Both the position numbers and the translations under genes were made by a program. From Kayfunavirus BDX03P1: 39,754 bases of DNA. Numbering within the stretch: position 1 is the stretch's first letter; every line of letters starts with the position of its first letter. Shown here piece by piece: positions 1,231 to 12,033 of this stretch. The notes below the pieces were generated by a model. It saw only the letters and a program-made list of their open reading frames with translations. It was not told the origin of the DNA and searched no databases. The stretch is from sequence record OZ035818.1, one strand, 5' to 3'.

Positions 1231-2968
1231 TGACGCCGTGACAAAGAGGATGAAAGAGGACTTCGTGTTCTTCTTATTCGTCCTCTGGAAAGCACTTAGC
1301 CTACCAATACCAACCAGATGCCAGATAGATATGGCCCGTAAGCTATCGGCTGGGGACAACAGGCGCTTCATCTTACAGGCGTTCCGTGGTATCGGGAAGT
1401 CCTTCATTACGTGTGCCTTCGTTGTCTGGAAGCTATGGAACAACCCAGACTTGAAGTTCATGATTGTGTCGGCCTCAAAGGAACGAGCCGATGCTAACTC
1501 CATCTTCATCAAGCGAATCATCGACCTCATGCCTCAGCTTCAGGAACTCAAACCTAAGCAGGGACAGCGAGATGCGGTTATCAGCTTCGACGTTGGACCA
1601 GCCAAGCCAGACCACTCACCTTCGGTTAAGTCAGTTGGTATCACTGGTCAGTTGACTGGTAGTCGTGCTGACATCCTGATTGCCGACGACGTGGAGGTTC
1701 CGAACAACTCAGCGACTCAGGCTGCACGAGACCGTCTATCAGAGCTTGTGAAAGAGTTCGACGCTATCCTGAAGCCTGGAGGTACAATCATCTATCTGGG
1801 TACTCCTCAGAACGAGATGACCTTGTATCGTGAGCTGGAAGGCCGTGGATACACCACTACTATCTGGCCTGCTCGCTATCCACGTGATAGGAAGGACTGG
1901 CAGTCTTACGGCGACCGTCTGGCACCGATGCTTCAGGCAGAGCTGGAAGAGGACCCTGAGTCCTTCTACTGGCGTCCGACCGATGAAGTTCGCTTCGACG
2001 ATACTGACCTGAAGGAACGTGAGCTGTCCTATGGTAAAGCTGGCTTCGCTCTACAGTTCATGCTCAACCCGAACCTGAGTGATGCCGAGAAGTACCCTCT
2101 GAAGCTCCGTGACCTTATCGTAGCAGACTTGGACCCAGCGTCCAGCCCAATGGTCTACCAATGGTTGCCTAACCCTCACAACAAGCGTGAGGACGTTCCT
2201 AACGTTGGACTCATGGGCGACTCGTACCACACGTATCAGACTGTAGGTTCTGCCTTCAGTTCGTACACCCAGAAGATTCTGGTCATTGACCCTAGTGGTC
2301 GTGGTAAGGATGAAACTGGCTATGCGGTACTATACCAGCTCAACGGCTACATCTTCGCTATGGAAGTTGGCGGTATGCGTGGTGGTTATGAAGACTCTAC
2401 TCTGGAAGCTCTGGCTAAGATTGGTCGTAAGTGGAAGGTCAACGAATACGTCATTGAGGGTAACTTCGGTGATGGTATGTACCTTGAGTTATTTAAGCCT
2501 GTAGCGGCCCGTATCCATCCTGCGGCTGTAACTGAAGTGAAGAGTAAGGGTCAGAAAGAACTCCGCATCTGTGACGTTCTGGAGCCTATCATGGGGTCTC
2601 ACAGACTTATCGTCAACGCTGCTGCTATCGTCCAAGATTACCAGTCGGCCTCTGATAAGGATGGTGTTCGTAACCCTATCTACTCTCTCTTCTACCAGAT
2701 GACACGTATCTCTCGTGAACGTGGGGCCTTGGCACACGATGACCGACTTGATGCGCTGGCTATCGGTGTACAGTTCTTCGTTGAGTCTATGGCTAAGGAT
2801 GCCAACAAAGGCGAACGTGAAGTCACTGAGGAGTGGCTGGAGGAACAGATGGAGAACCCACGGAAAGGCTTCGAGTCCATCCACACTGAGTTCTGGGACA
2901 ATGGGGTCCGGGTAACCCACGATACGGACGACGAGCTGGGGCTAGGGTCATACGTTACGTTCCACTAG
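1205..2968 (+). CDS. terminase large subunit (T7 gp19-like)
   Basis: Long ORF 1181-2968; strong resemblance to T7 gp19 ([21 protein letters not shown] Walker A region, [20 protein letters not shown]); start 1205 chosen by alignment of N-terminus, alternative ATG at 1181. Confidence 0.9.
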
Positions 2969-3062
2969 CTGAATGAATAACTATGGGTGAAAGCTGCATG
3001 AATACGCAGTTAGTAACCTATAGTTACTACCAGTCTAACCTACTGTTTTACAAGGAGTTTGG

Positions 3063-3085
3063 ACTTAACTATCACTATAGGGAAG
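3063..3085 (+). promoter_or_regulatory. phage RNAP promoter (phiOR-like, downstream of terminase)
   Basis: cttaactatcactatagggaaga matches the 12-copy consensus TAAACTATCACTATAGGRA. Confidence 0.6.
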
Positions 3086-3264
3086 ACCCCCGGTTACTTA
3101 TAGTATTACTGTAGTGAATATACATATGCAGACTTTATGCAAGACCTTAGGAGGCAGACTCCGAGTTCTTACCTAAGGCTTGCACCGATGGAAGGAGGTG
3201 ATATTAATCATAATCCCTCCAATACAGATAGTCACCGACCATAGATACAGGAGGTATGTAGCAT

Positions 3265-3423
3265 ATGGCAAAGACCAAAGCTGTACTTAAAGCTCTGGCG
3301 ACCAATCGAGCTACATACAGGTTTCTTGCTGCTGTTCTACTTGCTGCTGGCGTTACTGCTGGAAGTCAGTGGGTCGGGTGGGTCGAGACTCTCGTATGTT
3401 CTCTGGTGTCTGAGTGTCATTAA
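3265..3423 (+). CDS. small hydrophobic protein at gp19.5 position
   Basis: 52-codon ORF (below the ORF-track cutoff) with AGGAGG RBS 8 nt upstream; MAKTKAVLKALATNRATYRFLAAVLLAAGVTAG...; position equivalent to T7 gene 19.5. Confidence 0.4.
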   Translation: MAKTKAVLKALATNRATYRFLAAVLLAAGVTAGSQWVGWVETLVCSLVSECH

Positions 3424-3559
3424 CGCCGTAATGGTAACAATAAACGAAAGTAAGACCTAAGGTCAGTTCATAGCTGACGCTACTCTACTGACCTTAGCTA
3501 CTGTAGTCAAGGACTTTAGGTAACACCTTAAGAGAAGCTCACTTAGGGTCATCCTACTT

Positions 3560-3625
3560 ATTGGTCTATCCTAGTGTCGCCTGACCTACGGTCCTTGACC
3601 TACAGTGGCTGTGGCCTACAGTAGT
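3560..3625. repeat. short direct-repeat array (ACCTACRGT-type) flanking the terminal repeat
   Basis: gacctacggt / gacctacagt / gcctacagt tandem imperfect copies; analogous to T7 short-repeat arrays next to the terminal redundancy. Confidence 0.5.
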
Positions 3626-3660
3626 GACGATGAGTTTTGGACCAAAAGTTTGAGACCACA

Positions 3661-3850
3661 TCTCACAGTTCAAGAACCTCAAGTCTCCCCATAGGCCATC
3701 TTTCAGTCCAGACCAAAGGCCCTACCCCAGTCTATCATAAGGTTGGACCGATGGTCAAGACGTTAGGTCAACGATAGGTCTAGGCTATGGCTTAGGGAAG
3801 GACGATAGGTAGGGACTATGGGTCTTCTCTGAGTCTCTATCTGTATCAGA
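3661..3850. repeat. probable terminal redundancy (direct terminal repeat) / physical genome end, collapsed to one copy
   Basis: Begins tctcacagt as the T7 left end does (TCTCACAGTGTACGGACC); ends near ctctatctgtatcagacc resembling the T7 TR end; flanked by short-repeat arrays; right boundary approximate. Confidence 0.45.
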
Positions 3851-3950
3851 CCATAAGTAACAACCATCAGCCTACGCCTACAGTCTCACTAACCATAAGT
3901 CACAACCATAAGACACCAACGCCTACAGTCAGAGACCAACGGTTAATAGA
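3850..3950. repeat. short direct-repeat array (CCATAAGT and CGCCTACAGTC units)
   Basis: aaccataagt x3 and cgcctacagtc x2 in about 100 bp; analogous to T7 CCTAAAG repeats on the left-end side of the TR. Confidence 0.5.
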
Positions 3951-4054
3951 CACAATGCTATAGACTTAAGGTCTAAGACATGTTAGTCAAAGACTATATC
4001 CTCTTACACCATGGGGCCGACGATGGCTCAATCAATATTATTTCAAATAACCTA

Positions 4055-4090
4055 TTGACTATAGGTCTAGACTATGGCTTAATAGCTTCC
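4055..4090 (+). promoter_or_regulatory. sigma70 early promoter (A1-like)
   Basis: TTGACT - 17 bp - CTTAAT; surrounding sequence resembles the T7 A1 region (ttgact...ccggata...gtagacagcctgataagtc). Confidence 0.45.
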
Positions 4091-4194
4091 GTCAACACGA
4101 CACGGCAACAACCGGATAGTGAAGACGCCGGGTCATCCCGGTCAAGTAGACAGCCTGATAAGTCATACGAACAACAGGCAGATGACAAAAGCAG

Positions 4195-4232
4195 TTGACA
4201 AGAAGTACAAACTTAAAGTAGTATGTACCACG
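4195..4232 (+). promoter_or_regulatory. sigma70 early promoter (A2/A3-like)
   Basis: TTGACA - 18 bp - TAGTAT followed by GTACCAC as in T7 A3. Confidence 0.5.
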
Positions 4233-4342
4233 TAGCAAGATGGCGTAGGGATAGGAGCCGAGAAACCTGCCCGAGACCAGCCAAGGATAAGGCACTAGCC
4301 GTGAGTCGAATTCGGTCACTCACCGCATAAAAGAATAACAGG

Positions 4343-4380
4343 TTGACAGCCTCCTTTAAAAGCTGTAAGCTGTACCACAT
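4343..4380 (+). promoter_or_regulatory. sigma70 early promoter (A3-like)
   Basis: TTGACA - 17 bp - TAAGCT followed by GTACCAC. Confidence 0.5.
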
Positions 4381-4549
4381 CGAAACGAAGGTGAAGCCTA
4401 ACACTGAAACAGGCTAGCACGGCGACGACAGCCAACGCGAATGCTCTTTAACAATTTGGATAAACTCTTAATGTGCGCCGATAGCGACTAACTACAGGGT
4501 CTTTGAGTCTACAGCTGAAGGCCCTGACTGATAGTCACTAACTTAAAGG

Positions 4550-4804
4550 ATGGACACTATGAAACACTTAAGCACAATCACTAATCACAATGAAGTATTC
4601 GTGAACACTAAAGGTTATGCGTGGATTCAGCTTAAAGAGATGACAGGAGCGCGTCACCGTGTGGTAGTGCGCAAGGTCTCAAGCAAGCCGTTCAGCAACT
4701 ACAGTGTAGACACTGTGCGTATAGACAACGAGACCTACCTGATAGACTCACAGATAACCGTGAGTCCTACAGCGAGCGCCTCAGCTCCTTATTTCGCTAA
4801 CTGA
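4550..4804 (+). CDS. hypothetical early protein, first gene of the early operon (no T7 counterpart recognised)
   Basis: 84-aa ORF with GGA-rich RBS (aaggatgg); directly downstream of host-type promoters and upstream of ocr; flanked by similar elements (taactacagg...ctgatagtcactaac) at 4500-4545 and 4810-4860. Confidence 0.6.
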   Translation: MDTMKHLSTITNHNEVFVNTKGYAWIQLKEMTGARHRVVVRKVSSKPFSNYSVDTVRIDNETYLIDSQITVSPTASASAPYFAN

Positions 4805-4889
4805 GAGTGATTAACTACAGGTCGTTAGACTGATAGCGGCCTGAATGATAGTCACTAACACACACGATTAACTTTGAGAGGATATAACT

Positions 4890-5237
4890 ATGGAACGTAA
4901 CGCTAACGCATACTATGAGCTGATGGCTGCAACTGTTGAAGCCTTTAACGAGCGCATTCAGTACGACGAAATAGCTGAAGGCGATGACTACCACGATGCA
5001 CTGCATGAAGTTGTAGACGGTCAGGTCCCGCACTATTACCACGAGATCTTCACGGTGATGGCTGCTGATGGTATTTACCATGAGTTCGAAGACTCTGGGC
5101 TGATGCCTGAGACCAAGGATGTGACGCGTATACTGCAAGCTCGTATCTATGAGGCGCTTTATAACGACGTATCTAATAGCCGTGATGTGGTATGGTTTGA
5201 GGCTGAAGAGAGTGACGACGAGGAGGACTGCGAGTGA
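4890..5237 (+). CDS. ocr: Ocr-like DNA-mimic anti-restriction protein (T7 gp0.3-like)
   Basis: 115 aa, highly acidic; segments [41 protein letters not shown] and acidic C-tail match T7 Ocr closely. Confidence 0.9.
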
Positions 5238-5392
5238 TGGTAACTTATGGTCTCTGCCAGCACCACGTCACCAACGCCCGGATTATGGTCAAGACCGGGC
5301 AGTTAAACCACGATGCGACTATGCGTCACCTGAAAGCGGTCTATGAGGGCCGCAAGCGTATACACGACAGTTTGCACGCTGAGGACAAGTAA
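5237..5392 (+). CDS. small early protein (gp0.4 position; function not assigned)
   Basis: 51-codon ORF starting at ATG overlapping ocr stop (TGATG); same length as T7 gp0.4 but I cannot confirm sequence similarity. Confidence 0.35.
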   Translation: MVTYGLCQHHVTNARIMVKTGQLNHDATMRHLKAVYEGRKRIHDSLHAEDK

Positions 5393-5393
5393 C

Positions 5394-5519
5394 ATGTACC
5401 AGATAACTTATAGCAGTGAACAGGCGTTCTACGATGGGTGCTACGAGATGATGAAGCGCGGGGCTTGCTACGTGGCTAATCACCATAGCCTGACCATAAC
5501 GCTGACAGGCGGTTACTGA
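5394..5519 (+). CDS. small early ORF (41 aa), hypothetical
   Basis: ATG 2 nt after the previous stop; Cys-containing MYQITYSSEQAFYDGCYEMMKRGACYVANHH...; short, weak support. Confidence 0.25.
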   Translation: MYQITYSSEQAFYDGCYEMMKRGACYVANHHSLTITLTGGY

Positions 5520-5589
5520 GTGATAAACGAGAGGTAATCGACTGATAGGTGACCTCAAAGATTACCACTTGCATTAATAGGAGTTAACT

Positions 5590-5679
5590 ATGAGTGTGGG
5601 ATATTGGGCATGCCTAGCGCCAGTTATCTGGATGATAGGTTATGGGATATACGACTGTATTAAACGGGGATCACTATGA
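5590..5679 (+). CDS. small hydrophobic peptide (29 aa), hypothetical
   Basis: RBS taggag upstream; MSVGYWACLAPVIWMIGYGIY...; stop overlaps ATG of next ORF. Confidence 0.25.
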   Translation: MSVGYWACLAPVIWMIGYGIYDCIKRGSL

Positions 5680-5876
5680 GTCTTGCACTATTGATAGCCA
5701 TAGGCTATGCACTTATCGCCTACGTGCTGGTGAGAGACATTAACAAGGCGCGTAAAGTCTACAAATTCAACTATGTACATCTGGGCCGCTGGACTGTACG
5801 TCAACCTAACGGACGATTCATGCGCAACTTAGCGAACGTCTGGGATATAGCAACACTTGGGAGCAAACTACAATGA
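5676..5876 (+). CDS. small membrane protein, hypothetical early protein
   Basis: 66 aa; N-terminal TM segment LALLIAIGYALIAYVLV; translationally coupled to neighbours. Confidence 0.45.
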   Translation: MSLALLIAIGYALIAYVLVRDINKARKVYKFNYVHLGRWTVRQPNGRFMRNLANVWDIATLGSKLQ

Positions 5877-6205
5877 ACAAGTCATACGGGATTAATCTGG
5901 TACACTCTATGGACGCAGACATGCAAATGTTAAGCCTACTGGCTACCGGGTATCGTCACGGAACGTCAAGTCACTCCGCACGTCAACAGCAGGAGAGGGA
6001 CCGGGTACTACAAGCAAGACTCCGGGCTGAGGGCCATAAGTCCGAACTGATGTGTCTGGCGTATGGTGGACGACCAATCACTGACGATGGTAAACTTCTG
6101 GTCTCAGGCTGGAAGGCGATAGACCAACGGTCATCCATCAAGCACACGACTCATGGTGACTTCAGTCATCTTCACGCTAACCCACTGATATGCAAGCGAT
6201 TCTGA
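5873..6205 (+). CDS. hypothetical early protein at the gp0.7 position (no kinase motifs seen)
   Basis: 110-aa ORF, ATGA overlap with upstream ORF; immediately precedes RNAP gene; no Gly-rich loop, HRD or DFG kinase signatures. Confidence 0.5.
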   Translation: MNKSYGINLVHSMDADMQMLSLLATGYRHGTSSHSARQQQERDRVLQARLRAEGHKSELMCLAYGGRPITDDGKLLVSGWKAIDQRSSIKHTTHGDFSHLHANPLICKRF

Positions 6206-6227
6206 CTTAACTATCACTATAGGACTC
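6205..6227 (+). promoter_or_regulatory. phage RNAP promoter immediately upstream of the RNAP gene
   Basis: cttaactatcactataggactc, consensus match; followed by conserved leader gactcaaggtc. Confidence 0.55.
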
Positions 6228-6297
6228 AAGGTCTAAGACTCCAAGTGAAAAGACCAAAGAGACTTTAAGTGAAAGACTAATAACAAGGACTTTAAGT

Positions 6298-8979
6298 ATG
6301 AGCGTCATCTCTATTGACAAACACGACTTCTCTGATGTGTCAAACGCCATTGAGCCGTTTAACCTGCTGGCCGACCACTACGGGCAAGACCTTGCAGTCA
6401 AACAGCTTCAGCTTGAGCATGAGGCATACACTGAAGGCGAGCGACGTTTCATCAAAAACCTTGAGCGCCAGACTGAGCGAGGGGAACTGGCAGACAATCA
6501 GGTCGCCAAGCCTCTGATGCAGACTCTGGTCCCTAAGATTGCGCAAGCCGTCAGGGAGTGGCATGAAGGTCCAGACGGGAAGCTGTCAACCTCTCGTCCT
6601 AGCGTAGCGTTCACCATGTTGAGCACTGAAGAGAAGGCCGTCAAGGCCCGCTCGCTGCGCATCTCTTGCGAGTCTGCTGCGGTCATCATACTGAAGGTCA
6701 TACTCTCCAAGCTGGTCAAGCCTGAAGGGATACCGATTACACCGATGGCCTCCGCGATAGGTCGCACACTTGAGGACGAAATCCGCTTCGGTCGCATCCG
6801 TGACAAGGAGAAGGAGCACTTCAAGAAGGCGATAGCTGAGAATCTGAACAAGCGAGCTGGGGCATCCTACAAGAAAGCCTATATGCAAGCTGTCGAGACC
6901 TCCATGCTGGAGCAAGGCCAACTGGAAGATGCGTGGGGGACTTGGAGTCCTACAGAGGCTGTCCACGTTGGCATCAAGATGCTTGAGATTGTCATCCAGT
7001 CAACACAACTGGTCGAGCTTAAGCGGTACGGTGCTGGCAATGCAGCGGCTGACGTCGAGATGGTCCACCTGTCAGACTTCTGGGTCAAGAAGATGGCACA
7101 ACGAGGATTCAGCCTTGCGGGTATCGCTCCAGTCTACCAGCCTTGCGTCGTTCCACCTAAGCCGTGGACTGGTGTCGTAGGAGGTGGGTACTGGGCCAAA
7201 GGACGCAGACCACTACCACTGATTCGCTTAGGGTCTAAGTCTGCGGTGGCACGTTATGAAGACGTGTACATGCCTGAAGTCTATGACGCTGTGAATATCA
7301 TCCAGAATACACCTTGGAAAGTTAACAAAAAGGTACTGGAAGTGGTGAACATGGTCGAGAAGCTAAACAACACGCCTATTGATGACATCCCTCAGATGGA
7401 GCCACTGAAGCCTGAAGACTATGCGGGTGAGACTGAAGAGGAACTCAAGGCATGGAAGAAGGCTGCTGCTGGTATCTACCGCCGAGAGAAGGCCCGGCAG
7501 TCACGTAGATTGTCACTGAGCTTTATCGTTAACCAAGCGAACAAGTTCTCTCAGTTCAAGGCCATATGGTTTCCGTACAATATGGACTGGCGCGGTCGTG
7601 TCTACGCTGTTCCGATGTTCAACCCTCAGGGTAACGACATGCAAAAGGGTCTCCTGACTCTGGCAGTCGGTAAGCCTATTGGTGCTGATGGTTTCAAATG
7701 GCTGAAGGTCCACGGTGCAAACTGTGCGGGTATTGATAAAGTAACCTTCGAGGAGCGCATCAAGTGGGTGGAAGATAACCACGACAACATCATGGCTACC
7801 GCTAAGGCACCGATGGACAGCATTGAGTGGTGGGGAAAGTTAGACTCTCCGTTCTGCTTCCTAGCGTTCTGCTTCGAGTATGCTGGCGTAATGCATCACG
7901 GATTGTCTTACTCCTGCTCGCTGCCGATAGCATTCGATGGGTCCTGCTCTGGGATTCAGCACTTTAGCGCAATGCTTCGTGATCACATCGGTGGACATGC
8001 AGTAAACCTGACGCCTTCCGGTAAGGTCCAAGACATCTACCGCATCGTGTCGGACCGCATTGAGGAGGAGCTTAAAGTCCTGCTGGTTAATGGCACGGAC
8101 AACGAGATGGTAACTCACGAGGACAAGAAAACTGGTGAGATTACCGAACGTCTCAAGCTGGGGACACGAGAGCTGGCCCGGCAGTGGCTGACTTACGGTA
8201 TGTCACGCAAGGTCACTAAGCGTTCGGTCATGACTCTGGCCTACGGGTCGAAAGAGTATGGCTTCGCAGACCAAGTTTACGAGGACATCGTTATGCCAGC
8301 GATTGACTCAGGGTCTGGCGCTATGTTCACCGAACCAAGCCAAGCGTCCCGCTTCATGGCTAAGATGATCTGGGAAGCTGTGAGCGTGACCGTAGTTGCT
8401 GCTGTTGACGCGATGAAGTGGCTTCAAGGTGCTGCCAAGCTGCTGGCTGCTGAAGTGAAAGACAAGAAGACTGGAGAAATCCTGAAGCCTTGCCTTCCGG
8501 TACACTGGGTCACACCTGATGGTTTCCCGGTCTGGCAGGAATACCGCAAGAAGGATACCACTCGTCTGAATCTGATGTTCTTAGGGTCATTCAACCTTCA
8601 ACCTACGGTCAACAAAGGTACGAAGAAAGAGCTGGACAAGCACAAGCAGGAGTCAGGCATTAGCCCGAACTTCGTCCACTCACAAGATGGTAGCCACCTA
8701 CGCAAGACTGTAGTCCACACTCACCGTAAGTATGGCGTGATGTCGTTCGCAGTGATTCACGATAGCTTCGGGACCATCCCGGCTGACGCTGAGTATCTGT
8801 TCCGGGGTGTCCGTGAGACGATGGTCGAGACCTACCGCGACAACGATGTGCTGCTTGACTTCTACGAGCAGTTTGAATACCAACTTCATGAGAGCCAGCG
8901 CGACAAGTTGCCTGAGCTTCCGAAGAAAGGTAAACTGAATATCGAGGACATCTTGTCTTCAGACTTTGCATTCGCTTAA
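6298..8979 (+). CDS. DNA-directed RNA polymerase, single-subunit (T7 gp1-like)
   Basis: 893 aa; near-colinear with T7 RNAP (e.g. WFPYNMDWRGRVYAV, FNPQGNDM, FDGSCSGIQHFSAMLRD, HDSFGT, C-terminal FAFA). Confidence 0.97.
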   Translation: MSVISIDKHDFSDVSNAIEPFNLLADHYGQDLAVKQLQLEHEAYTEGERRFIKNLERQTERGELADNQVAKPLMQTLVPKIAQAVREWHEGPDGKLSTSRPSVAFTMLSTEEKAVKARSLRISCESAAVIILKVILSKLVKPEGIPITPMASAIGRTLEDEIRFGRIRDKEKEHFKKAIAENLNKRAGASYKKAYMQAVETSMLEQGQLEDAWGTWSPTEAVHVGIKMLEIVIQSTQLVELKRYGAGNAAADVEMVHLSDFWVKKMAQRGFSLAGIAPVYQPCVVPPKPWTGVVGGGYWAKGRRPLPLIRLGSKSAVARYEDVYMPEVYDAVNIIQNTPWKVNKKVLEVVNMVEKLNNTPIDDIPQMEPLKPEDYAGETEEELKAWKKAAAGIYRREKARQSRRLSLSFIVNQANKFSQFKAIWFPYNMDWRGRVYAVPMFNPQGNDMQKGLLTLAVGKPIGADGFKWLKVHGANCAGIDKVTFEERIKWVEDNHDNIMATAKAPMDSIEWWGKLDSPFCFLAFCFEYAGVMHHGLSYSCSLPIAFDGSCSGIQHFSAMLRDHIGGHAVNLTPSGKVQDIYRIVSDRIEEELKVLLVNGTDNEMVTHEDKKTGEITERLKLGTRELARQWLTYGMSRKVTKRSVMTLAYGSKEYGFADQVYEDIVMPAIDSGSGAMFTEPSQASRFMAKMIWEAVSVTVVAAVDAMKWLQGAAKLLAAEVKDKKTGEILKPCLPVHWVTPDGFPVWQEYRKKDTTRLNLMFLGSFNLQPTVNKGTKKELDKHKQESGISPNFVHSQDGSHLRKTVVHTHRKYGVMSFAVIHDSFGTIPADAEYLFRGVRETMVETYRDNDVLLDFYEQFEYQLHESQRDKLPELPKKGKLNIEDILSSDFAFA

Positions 8980-8993
8980 CAGGAGAGAGAGTT

Positions 8994-9209
8994 ATGAAAT
9001 TCGCACACAAGCAGACGGGCGTTAATGGTGGGACTCAAATCGTGACCGTAACGGAACACAACGGCAAGGGTCTGGTGAAGACCACTGTCATCCCAACTAA
9101 GATGTCCAAGCAGCTTAACATTCCGTTCAAGACTCTTGTATATCTGGTCGAGTCCAGCCACGAGAAGTACCTGAAGGACGTAGTGTCCAAGCTGGAGCAG
9201 ACCAAATGA
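8994..9209 (+). CDS. hypothetical protein
   Basis: 71-aa ORF with GGAGAG RBS immediately after RNAP; no recognisable motif. Confidence 0.45.
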   Translation: MKFAHKQTGVNGGTQIVTVTEHNGKGLVKTTVIPTKMSKQLNIPFKTLVYLVESSHEKYLKDVVSKLEQTK

Positions 9210-9284
9210 CAGACCTACAGTTACTGGCCTTGTGGCTGGGAGCACTCGCAATATTCACTTTAATCCAACGCAGAAGAGGTTAAC

Positions 9285-9307
9285 CCTAAACTATCACTAT
9301 AGGATTA
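9285..9307 (+). promoter_or_regulatory. phage RNAP promoter (phi1.1-like)
   Basis: ctaaactatcactataggatta; followed by the conserved hairpin element. Confidence 0.65.
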
Positions 9308-9350
9308 GACTCAAGGTCATGACTCAAAGTCGTGGCCTTCATGATTAACC
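9305..9350 (+). promoter_or_regulatory. conserved hairpin, probable RNase III site (R1.1 position)
   Basis: ttagactcaaggtcatgactcaaagtcgtggccttcatgattaacc; second copy of the element at 306-350. Confidence 0.45.
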
Positions 9351-9380
9351 CTAAATAAACACTACTGGAGATTTAACCGT

Positions 9381-9560
9381 ATGTATCAGAACACTATCAA
9401 CTTCGAGCGCATCCGTGAACGTCAGCAGACTGAAGGCTACATCCCGAAGGGCCGCAAGCTGAACAAGACTAAGCGTGGCGGTGGTGTCAAAGGCGCTTTC
9501 CGTAATGCTGAAGGTAAAGACTCTCTGGTCAACAAAGAGAAGTATTTCTTAGGAGCGTAA
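9381..9560 (+). CDS. gp1.1-like small basic protein
   Basis: 59-codon ORF; KGRKLNKTKR motif as in T7 gp1.1. Confidence 0.6.
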   Translation: MYQNTINFERIRERQQTEGYIPKGRKLNKTKRGGGVKGAFRNAEGKDSLVNKEKYFLGA

Positions 9561-11874: not shown

Positions 11875-12033
11875 ATGAGCCTTGAAGAAAAGAAGTACAT
11901 CGTGGAGCTTGAGGGTCGCGTTCAATCCTTCGAGATTCCGGTGTACGCAAAGTCTCTTGAAGAGGCTACCATGAAGTCCCAAGAGTATGAGGACGCTGGG
12001 TTTGTGGTCGGACGGATTCGTCCTGAGACCTAA
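11875..12033 (+). CDS. host RNA polymerase inhibitor (T7 gp2-like)
   Basis: [14 protein letters not shown]...[10 protein letters not shown] parallels T7 gp2 SFEVPIYAETLDEA...AGFEVTRVRP; start at ATG 11875 with GGAGAAAGGG RBS rather than ORF-track 11812. Confidence 0.7.

Follow-up and report, generated by a model that had tools for sequence, protein, structure and literature searches.

The kinase-less early operon of Kayfunavirus BDX03P1 is typical of its genus and encodes a remote homologue of T7 gp0.4

What stands in the place of genes 0.4 to 0.7 in a T7-like phage without the gp0.7 protein kinase, and do the genes found there do the work of the kinase? The question is raised by the genome of Kayfunavirus BDX03P1 (sequence record OZ035818.1; 39,754 nucleotides, the whole of which is called the window below), in which five small open reading frames (ORFs) lie between the anti-restriction gene ocr (gene 0.3) and the phage RNA polymerase gene (gene 1). 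A first-pass annotation made from the letters alone had described these ORFs as having replaced the kinase. Our analysis leads us to consider, with good confidence, that the region is a normal ocr-type early operon of Kayfunavirus, that the kinase is an accessory cassette and that the five ORFs are real genes. As a description, the first-pass annotation was correct, and the trait that it described is an ordinary and catalogued one of the genus; its causal reading ("replaced") was wrong.

The window holds the genome of a T7-like phage in circularly permuted form, and its closest DNA matches, with identities of 89-95%, are to Kayfunaviruses such as Peacock, Vec13 and LS2; by sequence the phage is placed in this genus, as a K1F-like T7 relative of the Studiervirinae. 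The genes from ocr to gene 1, the hairpin and the promoter among them and the gp2-type gene further on are all on the plus strand. The early region of interest begins with ocr itself (4890-5237), predicted to encode a DNA-mimic anti-restriction protein of 115 amino acids (aa) (Pfam PF08684, E 8.5e-31; 63% identity to T7 gp0.3 over 78 aa). The five ORFs of 51, 41, 29, 66 and 110 aa follow at 5237-5392, 5394-5519, 5590-5679, 5676-5876 and 5873-6205, all of them with the sizes first given; only the start of the 41-aa ORF had been placed one base off, its ATG being at 5394. Overlapping stop and start codons had been reported for the series, and they are indeed found at the ocr/51-aa junction (a 1-nt overlap, TGATG) and at the 29/66 and 66/110 junctions (ATGA overlaps), but the 51-aa and 41-aa ORFs are separated by 1 nt (TAAcATG) and the 41-aa and 29-aa ORFs by 70 nt. 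The latter is the sole long intergenic gap and holds a conserved hairpin, to which we return below. A Shine-Dalgarno-like GGAG/GAGG motif is found 7-11 nt 5' of each of the five starts (AGGAG at 7 nt for the 29-aa ORF) and, by analogy with T7 and T3, the tightly spaced cistrons would be translationally coupled.

This layout is typical for the genus and was already on record, as can be seen from the annotations of K1F, Peacock, EPr2, CHX131, Vec13 and SH4. The type phage K1F is annotated 0.3 / 0.35 / 0.36 / 0.37 / 0.38 / 1, with no kinase. Peacock, EPr2 and CHX131 have the same five ORFs as the window, a 55-aa gp0.36-type ORF replaces the 29-aa ORF in Vec13, and the published table of Citrobacter phage SH4 gives gp0.35 (52 aa), a 56-aa ORF, "gp0.6" (66 aa) and a 108-aa ORF, then the RNA polymerase. 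The absence of the kinase is thus documented in K1F and in the published SH3, SH4 and SH5 tables; these phages, together with Peacock, Vec13 and EcoDS1, share with the window the gene order, the lack of a kinase and the same promoter before gene 1. Identity between the window and K1F amounts to 78% for gp0.35 (the 51-aa ORF), 94% for gp0.37 (the 66-aa ORF) and 74-76% for gp0.38 (the 110-aa ORF). The two phages differ in that the window has a 41-aa ORF that K1F lacks, a 29-aa peptide where K1F has the 55-aa gp0.36, an ocr protein of 115 aa versus 169 aa in K1F, and a 24-aa N-terminal extension of gp0.38, unlike K1F.

That no gp0.7-type kinase is encoded, as first proposed, was borne out over the whole window: tblastn searches with three divergent kinases, those of T7, T3 and IMM-002 (the last a Kayfunavirus-type query), gave a best E of 0.7. 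Among the five ORFs, no kinase family was matched in Pfam, PHROGs or NCBIfam, phrog_2828 (the gp0.7-type family, with kinase-domain motifs like VIKVGFKK and ITDPVSFS) being absent, so that T7/T3 gp0.7, a Ser/Thr kinase with a host shut-off domain, has no counterpart in the window. More generally, the five ORFs had no Pfam match in a Pfam copy without the PF26807 model, none above the NCBIfam cut-off and none above the PADLOC threshold, and the PHROGs that they matched were all families of unknown function.

To place this absence in the genus, we mapped 31 related loci found via the gp0.38 family (8 GenBank regions and 23 IMG/VR contigs, the mapped loci being designated by L numbers). A kinase is present only in 8 distinct loci, all of the SAMase type: in each of them gene 0.3 encodes a SAMase and not ocr, and the gp0.35-type gene is absent. 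Conversely, none of the 22 distinct gp0.35-type loci has a kinase. Kinase-bearing sister phages and loci include IMM-002, L016, L017, L022-L024, L032 and the published phage B1, whose order is 41 aa, a 243-aa kinase, 53, 64 and 108 aa, RNA polymerase. The kinase of the 8 loci is a protein of 244 aa, with 32-40% identity to the kinase domains of T7 and T3; it is a kinase-only version that lacks the C-terminal shut-off domain of ~115 aa present in T7/T3 gp0.7, and it sits at the hairpin junction. It lies 5' of the 29-aa or gp0.37 homologue in all 8 loci and directly 3' of the 41-aa homologue in 6 of them. Homologues of gp0.37 and gp0.38 are present in 8/8, those of the 41-aa and 29-aa ORFs in most, and the 41-aa homologues of kinase-bearing loci are 83% identical to the window ORF. 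Because their homologues flank the kinase in the same order in kinase-bearing phages, the small ORFs are best read as shared backbone genes and not as kinase substitutes, and the claim that they replaced the kinase does not survive the coexistence of the 66- and 110-aa homologues with a kinase in sister phages. GenBank phage records give a similar picture, with gp0.38 in 222, the gp0.35 type (at least 60% identity) in 167 and the Kayfunavirus-type kinase (at least 60%) in 44; gp0.35-type and kinase records are close to a partition of the gp0.38-bearing phages. Most of the genus has the kinase-less layout, and the kinase is an accessory cassette of ~20% of its members, linked to the SAMase-type left arm.

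Two records deserve mention for their labels. In Vec13 (MH400309) the ocr homologue at 1610-1942 is labelled 'protein kinase' in GenBank; it is 88.7% identical to the window ocr and has no kinase similarity, so the label is apparently wrong and might lead surveys of kinases astray. In Salmonella phage ST35 (OQ860976), a coding sequence labelled SAMase (1653-2582) joins the SAMase in frame to the C-terminal ~194 aa of the kinase; a deletion may truly have fused the two, or the 'partial genome' assembly may have created the join artificially.

How could a kinase come and go at this position? The hairpin between the 41-aa and 29-aa ORFs (5518-5569) is supported by covariation: RNAalifold, run on 14 variants, predicts 17 consensus pairs, and compensatory double changes occur at 4 of these. 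It is found in nearly all Kayfunavirus loci and is doubled where the kinase or extra cassettes occur, related copies lying on both sides of the kinase (L015, L017 and L032 have two copies each). In position and shape it matches the R0.5 site annotated in T3, and the T7/T3 RNase III sites (R0.3, R0.5, R1) are likewise intercistronic stem-loops with an internal loop; unlike those sites, however, the Kayfunavirus copies also bracket variable cassettes. The hairpin is thus probably of the RNase III-site type, and the transcript would be cut into two translationally linked blocks, ocr-51-41 and 29-66-110. Through recombination between repeated hairpins, cassettes could also be lost or exchanged. 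Their arrangement suggests that early-operon cassettes were exchanged in this way, and the hairpins may double as recombination joints swapping the kinase, endonuclease VII and small ORFs. A 140-aa ORF annotated endonuclease VII is found between the 66- and 110-aa homologues in some relatives (L012, L023, L024, L008/L026) and is a further variable cassette of the operon. Searches for other RNA elements gave no Rfam match in 2900-9500 and no intrinsic terminator in 2900-6400. A strong stem-loop was seen just 5' of ocr (4800-4860; -23.8 kcal/mol, z = -3.5, 0/200 shuffles as stable), probably an R0.3-type RNase III site, and a weaker one at 4490-4545, before an 84-aa ORF (4550-4804) which is the homologue of K1F gp0.2, a conserved early gene (phrog_10124, E 1.8e-40).

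Recombination between two flanking hairpin copies could have deleted the kinase recently in this lineage, and the kinase-less state would then not be ancestral in the ocr-type Kayfunaviruses. Two related copies of ~50 nt do flank the kinase where it is present, the window keeps one of them, and the presence of a kinase in T7, T3 and Sarma103 suggests that it was ancestral in the Studiervirinae. We hold this to be less likely than not: all 22 gp0.35-type loci and the ~167 GenBank records are kinase-less, and any deletion would have to be old and shared and not specific to this phage; moreover, the kinase-flanking copies differ in type (GAGAGG..CCTC versus TACAGG..CCTG) and no kinase sequence remnant is left in the window. 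We retain the interpretation of the region as a normal ocr-type operon. A few observations nevertheless count against it or soften it. The kinase difference may reflect either a loss or a gain. Taken singly, the window hairpin is no more stable than shuffled sequences (z = -1.4), and its cleavage, like the early transcription of the region from the left end by host RNA polymerase, is transposed from T7 and T3.

If the small ORFs are backbone genes, what may they encode? The clearest answer comes from the 51-aa ORF, a member of the K1F gp0.35 family. The first-pass annotation had counted gp0.4 among the T7 genes missing here, which proved mistaken, for the 51-aa protein is a remote homologue, a diverged member of the T7 gp0.4 family. 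The evidence is as follows: (i) blastp aligns it with T7 gp0.4 at 39% identity over 41 aa (E 1e-5); (ii) the two proteins reciprocally match each other's PHROGs (phrog_5058, 7202, 25044); (iii) the precomputed Pfam tag PF26807.1 is carried by 96/96 homologues of the window protein and by 43/43 homologues of T7 gp0.4; (iv) hhalign of the 51-aa family against the gp0.4 family gives a probability of 91% (E 9.4e-7, score 33.6), when 40 column-shuffled controls reached at most a score of 12.6 and a probability of 1.1%, and unrelated families 0.3-0.4%; and (v) Rahnella phage Sarma103 encodes an intermediate with 49% identity to T7 gp0.4 and 30% identity to the protein of the window. This intermediate is annotated "putative host cell division inhibitor" and is followed by homologues of the 41-aa ORF and of gp0.6. 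The window protein and T7 gp0.4, both of 51 aa and both PF26807-tagged, share only ~35-39% identity overall, but in both phages the gene starts on the last base of the gene 0.3 stop codon (T7 gene 0.4, 1278-1433; window ORF, 5237-5392).

This relationship seems to have been overlooked. Every database name that we found for the gp0.35 family is "hypothetical protein", the gp0.4 relationship was not found in the K1F literature consulted, our literature search found no mention of PF26807, and gp0.4 homologues have been given only among close T7 relatives (PMC13423816). The link appears to be captured only by the Pfam tag and by one annotator's label on the bridging phage Sarma103. We also noted that the gp0.35/gp0.4-like 51-aa ORF of CHX131 (PV611674, 981-1139) is labelled 'NinH protein', to which the homology found here gives no support.

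The assignment bears on a phenotype described in K1F. T7 gp0.4 is an FtsZ inhibitor (Kiro et al. 2013, as cited in PMC9372555). Its family is defined by two antiparallel helices and by FtsZ binding that prevents assembly of the Z-ring, with filamentation as the result. K1F infection leads to multi-ring filaments with mislocalised FtsZ, and Z-ring function is blocked; the 2022 study that reported this concluded that the inhibitor "is likely to be novel" (PMC9372555). In T7 gp0.4, toxicity is abolished by alanine at V15, V22, W28, M32, L35 or Y39, and W28L and L35P abolish FtsZ binding (PMC13423816). In the hhalign register these six positions correspond to V11, V18, H25, M29, L32 and Y36 of the window protein, so that five of the six residues are the same as in T7, two of them (L32 and Y36) being invariant across the family. 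From this homology and from the K1F infection phenotype, the 51-aa protein would most likely bind monomeric FtsZ at the synergy-loop face and block Z-ring assembly, which would result in filamentation. We thus propose 51-aa/gp0.35 as a candidate for the "unknown" FtsZ inhibitor of K1F.

Three points weigh against this proposal. The position of W28 is occupied by His in 18, Tyr in 2 and Asn in 1 of 21 family members and, as W28L or W28A abolishes FtsZ binding or toxicity in T7, binding is not guaranteed with His at this site. The gp0.4 link comes from profile methods and from one BLAST alignment of 41 residues. Finally, no gp0.4 similarity was found in K1F by BLAST, and K1F was stated to lack "the 0.4 genes" (PMC9372555). 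It could then be argued that the 51-aa protein has gp0.4 ancestry but a changed target, and that the inhibitor of K1F-type phages is another early protein, such as that of the 41-aa or the 110-aa ORF. His in place of the essential tryptophan and the low overall identity would fit such a shift, all the more so since small phage proteins are quick to retarget (PMC13423816) and the residues facing the CapRel sensor have all changed (see below). We nevertheless regard it as unlikely, given the five identical FtsZ-contact residues, the fact that K1F, which carries gp0.35, shows an FtsZ phenotype typical of gp0.4, and the retention by the 51-aa gene of its position and its coupling to gene 0.3.

The residues of T7 gp0.4 that contact CapRel(Ebc) are A12, T14, L16, S19 and R23; in the window they are Q, H, T, R and K, five differences out of five. 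The 51-aa version may therefore inhibit FtsZ and yet escape the CapRel(Ebc) defence, a prediction drawn from aligned residues.

The next two ORFs, of 41 and 29 aa, have no informative relatives. The 41-aa ORF, a conserved small protein (phrog_33188, E 1.8e-6), is present in 108 phage records and lies 3' of the gp0.4-like gene in Kayfunaviruses and in Sarma103, where ORF3 is 78% identical to it. The 29-aa ORF, a predicted small membrane peptide, has orthologues in 19 loci (59-90% identity); in related phages K1F gp0.36 occurs either in its place or beside it. By position it is the counterpart of T7 gp0.5, with no sequence similarity between the two. Two of the five ORFs had been noted as hydrophobic and indeed are: the grand average of hydropathy (GRAVY) of the 29-aa peptide is 0.83, and in the 66-aa protein, the equivalent of K1F gp0.37 (phrog_2385, E 3.9e-32), residues 1-19 reach a Kyte-Doolittle value of 2.43, consistent with an N-terminal transmembrane helix, which is followed by a basic tail (isoelectric point, pI, 10.7).

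The 66-aa protein is homologous to T3 gp0.6 (40% identity over 63 aa by blastp, E 5.5e-10), and its K1F and EcoDS1 equivalents were labelled '0.6' in the original records. Sarma103 again provides a bridge, its ORF4 being 59% identical to T3 gp0.6 and 44% to the 66-aa ORF. The T3 protein (65 aa) and the 66-aa ORF share length, the N-terminal transmembrane segment and a W..TVR..NGRF motif; the 66-aa ORF is 3' of the hairpin and the 29-aa ORF, whereas T3 gp0.6 comes directly after R0.5. Homologues exist in 289 phage records, including T7-like phages of Klebsiella, Yersinia and Erwinia. The 66-aa ORF is unrelated to T7 gp0.6A/B, the MreB inhibitor, and more broadly none of the five ORFs is similar to T7 gp0.5, T7 gp0.6A or T3 gp0.65; sequence searches of the PDB with the 66-aa and 41-aa ORFs returned nothing significant. 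The earlier view of the 66- and 110-aa proteins as functionally uncharacterised stands, and it holds for T3 gp0.6 as well. Of the 29-, 41-, 66- and 110-aa products we propose no more than that they would be small early proteins that bind host targets; the 66-aa basic protein and the 29-aa peptide would be anchored in the membrane, and the 41- and 110-aa proteins would most likely act by binding host proteins.

The 110-aa protein belongs to the K1F gp0.38 family (phrog_7066, E 5.3e-45), which is found in 222 phage records and directly 5' of gene 1 in 31/31 Kayfunavirus loci examined. Its conserved part is the C-terminal ~86 residues (~25-110 in the window), ending in a nearly invariant C-terminal peptide, GDFSHLHANPLICK; the N-terminal extension is variable and gives rise to forms of 83-86, 108-110 and 130-139 aa. 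An exhaustive profile search over 1.84 billion representatives recovered only 12 gp0.38 clusters at 50% identity. AlphaFold2 modelled the full 110 aa poorly (predicted local distance difference test score, pLDDT, 50), while the 87-aa core with a deeper alignment gave three helices at a pLDDT of 76, with low confidence for the GDFSHLHANPLICK tail. Structure searches returned only the family itself or generic helical matches, Foldseek finding nothing in the PDB and only its own family in BFVD. PDB sequence searches with the 110-aa ORF and two family profiles gave nothing significant, and a literature search found no mention of gp0.38. The protein is a small orphan helical protein that occurs almost only in this genus. 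If it binds a host protein, it would use the invariant C-terminal peptide, and one may go further and imagine a new kind of genus-specific host-takeover effector, in which this small three-helix protein would dock onto a host protein through GDFSHLHANPLICK and supply a shut-off function that Kayfunaviruses otherwise lack, even in their kinase; we hold this reading to be improbable. We also considered that gp0.38 might be the detached shut-off domain of gp0.7 (~residues 243-359 of T7 gp0.7) and rejected it, since hhalign gave a probability of 0.8% against an alignment of 75 gp0.7 C-terminal sequences.

These results allow us to come back to the idea that the five ORFs functionally replace gp0.7, jointly giving its host-shutoff and kinase-dependent functions after loss of the kinase. 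It has some appeal: the ORFs fill the interval of T7 0.4-0.7, and the 110-aa protein is basic (pI 9.6) and stands directly before gene 1, where T7 encodes the gp0.7 shut-off domain, a domain that the 244-aa Kayfunavirus kinase itself does not have. However, genes that coexist with the kinase in sister phages, as the 66- and 110-aa homologues do and usually those of 41 and 29 aa, are not replacements by origin; gp0.38 resembles the gp0.7 C-terminal domain neither by hhalign nor by a phrog_2828 match; and the 51-aa ORF is gp0.4-like, when T7 carries gp0.4 alongside its kinase. The idea is largely refuted by this co-occurrence, and we consider it very improbable.

Are all five ORFs genes at all? 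Each was compared with its orthologues in 19-29 related loci, and the ratio of nonsynonymous to synonymous change (pN/pS) was calculated for the annotated frame and for both shifted ones; although the sequence pairs lack phylogenetic independence, the frames differ clearly. In-frame values were 0.26 (51 aa), 0.16 (41 aa), 0.33 (29 aa), 0.31 (66 aa) and 0.30 (110 aa), whereas the shifted frames gave 0.94-2.2 across the five ORFs and 0.94-1.26 for the 29-aa ORF (19 loci). Because only the annotated frame shows suppressed nonsynonymous change, the five ORFs are real genes under purifying selection specific to that frame. That the short ORFs, above all the 29- and 41-aa ones, arose by chance and are not translated is hardly credible: they are very short, several records leave them unannotated and the exact 29-aa sequence is absent from a collection of 15 billion proteins, but their out-of-frame pN/pS is 0.94-1.72 against the low values in frame, their start and stop codons are kept across 19 loci, their Shine-Dalgarno motifs are correctly spaced, and the 41-aa ORF is highly conserved outside the genus, in Sarma103.

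A phage promoter stands before gene 1 and closes the block of small ORFs: at 6209-6223, 4 nt after the 110-aa ORF and ~88 nt 5' of the polymerase start codon, the promoter core of the phage RNA polymerase, AACTATCACTATAGG, is present without a mismatch; the window holds 12 copies of this core with at most 3 mismatches, when 0.97 are expected. The promoter is conserved in 31/31 Kayfunavirus loci, ~88-95 nt 5' of gene 1, and T7 and T3 have none at this site (best match, 7 mismatches). Gene 1 (6298-8979) encodes a predicted single-subunit phage RNA polymerase of 893 aa, with 49% identity to the N-terminal region of T7 gp1 and 93-99% to Kayfunavirus RNA polymerases, and would therefore be a natural autogene with positive feedback. 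In loci with a diverged polymerase (L016, L023, L031) the promoter is a variant, AAACCCTCACTATAGG or AAACCCTCACTGTAGG, from which it can be seen that the promoter co-varies with the enzyme. The leader between promoter and start codon (6224-6297) contains four GACTYYAAG-like repeats (GACTCAAGG, GACTCCAAG and, twice, GACTTTAAG); its fold is not more stable than shuffles. Further downstream, the ORF at 11875-12033 encodes a gp2-type inhibitor of host RNA polymerase of 52 aa (Pfam PF16857, RNA_pol_inhib, E 9.9e-20). Because this inhibitor is present, host transcription could be shut off independently of gp0.7: gp2 would still inhibit the host RNA polymerase in the absence of the kinase.

The lack of a kinase is of no importance by itself: most members of this well-sampled genus have the same layout, and GenBank has contained it from the K1F genome onwards. 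The added value of the analysis is modest and consists of the inhibitor candidate, the CapRel(Ebc) prediction, the kinase as a hairpin-bracketed cassette and the gp0.38 orphan family. It also draws attention to gp0.37 and gp0.38 as core early genes, without assigned function, of a phage genus that is used therapeutically. The most useful result is the reassignment of the 51-aa ORF, and with it the K1F gp0.35 family, to the gp0.4 family of FtsZ inhibitors. The Z-ring inhibitor of K1F, deemed novel in 2022, now has a named candidate that can be tested. As the residues read by CapRel(Ebc) are all changed and those facing FtsZ mostly kept, this family offers a natural test of whether a phage can go on inhibiting FtsZ while escaping the sensor.

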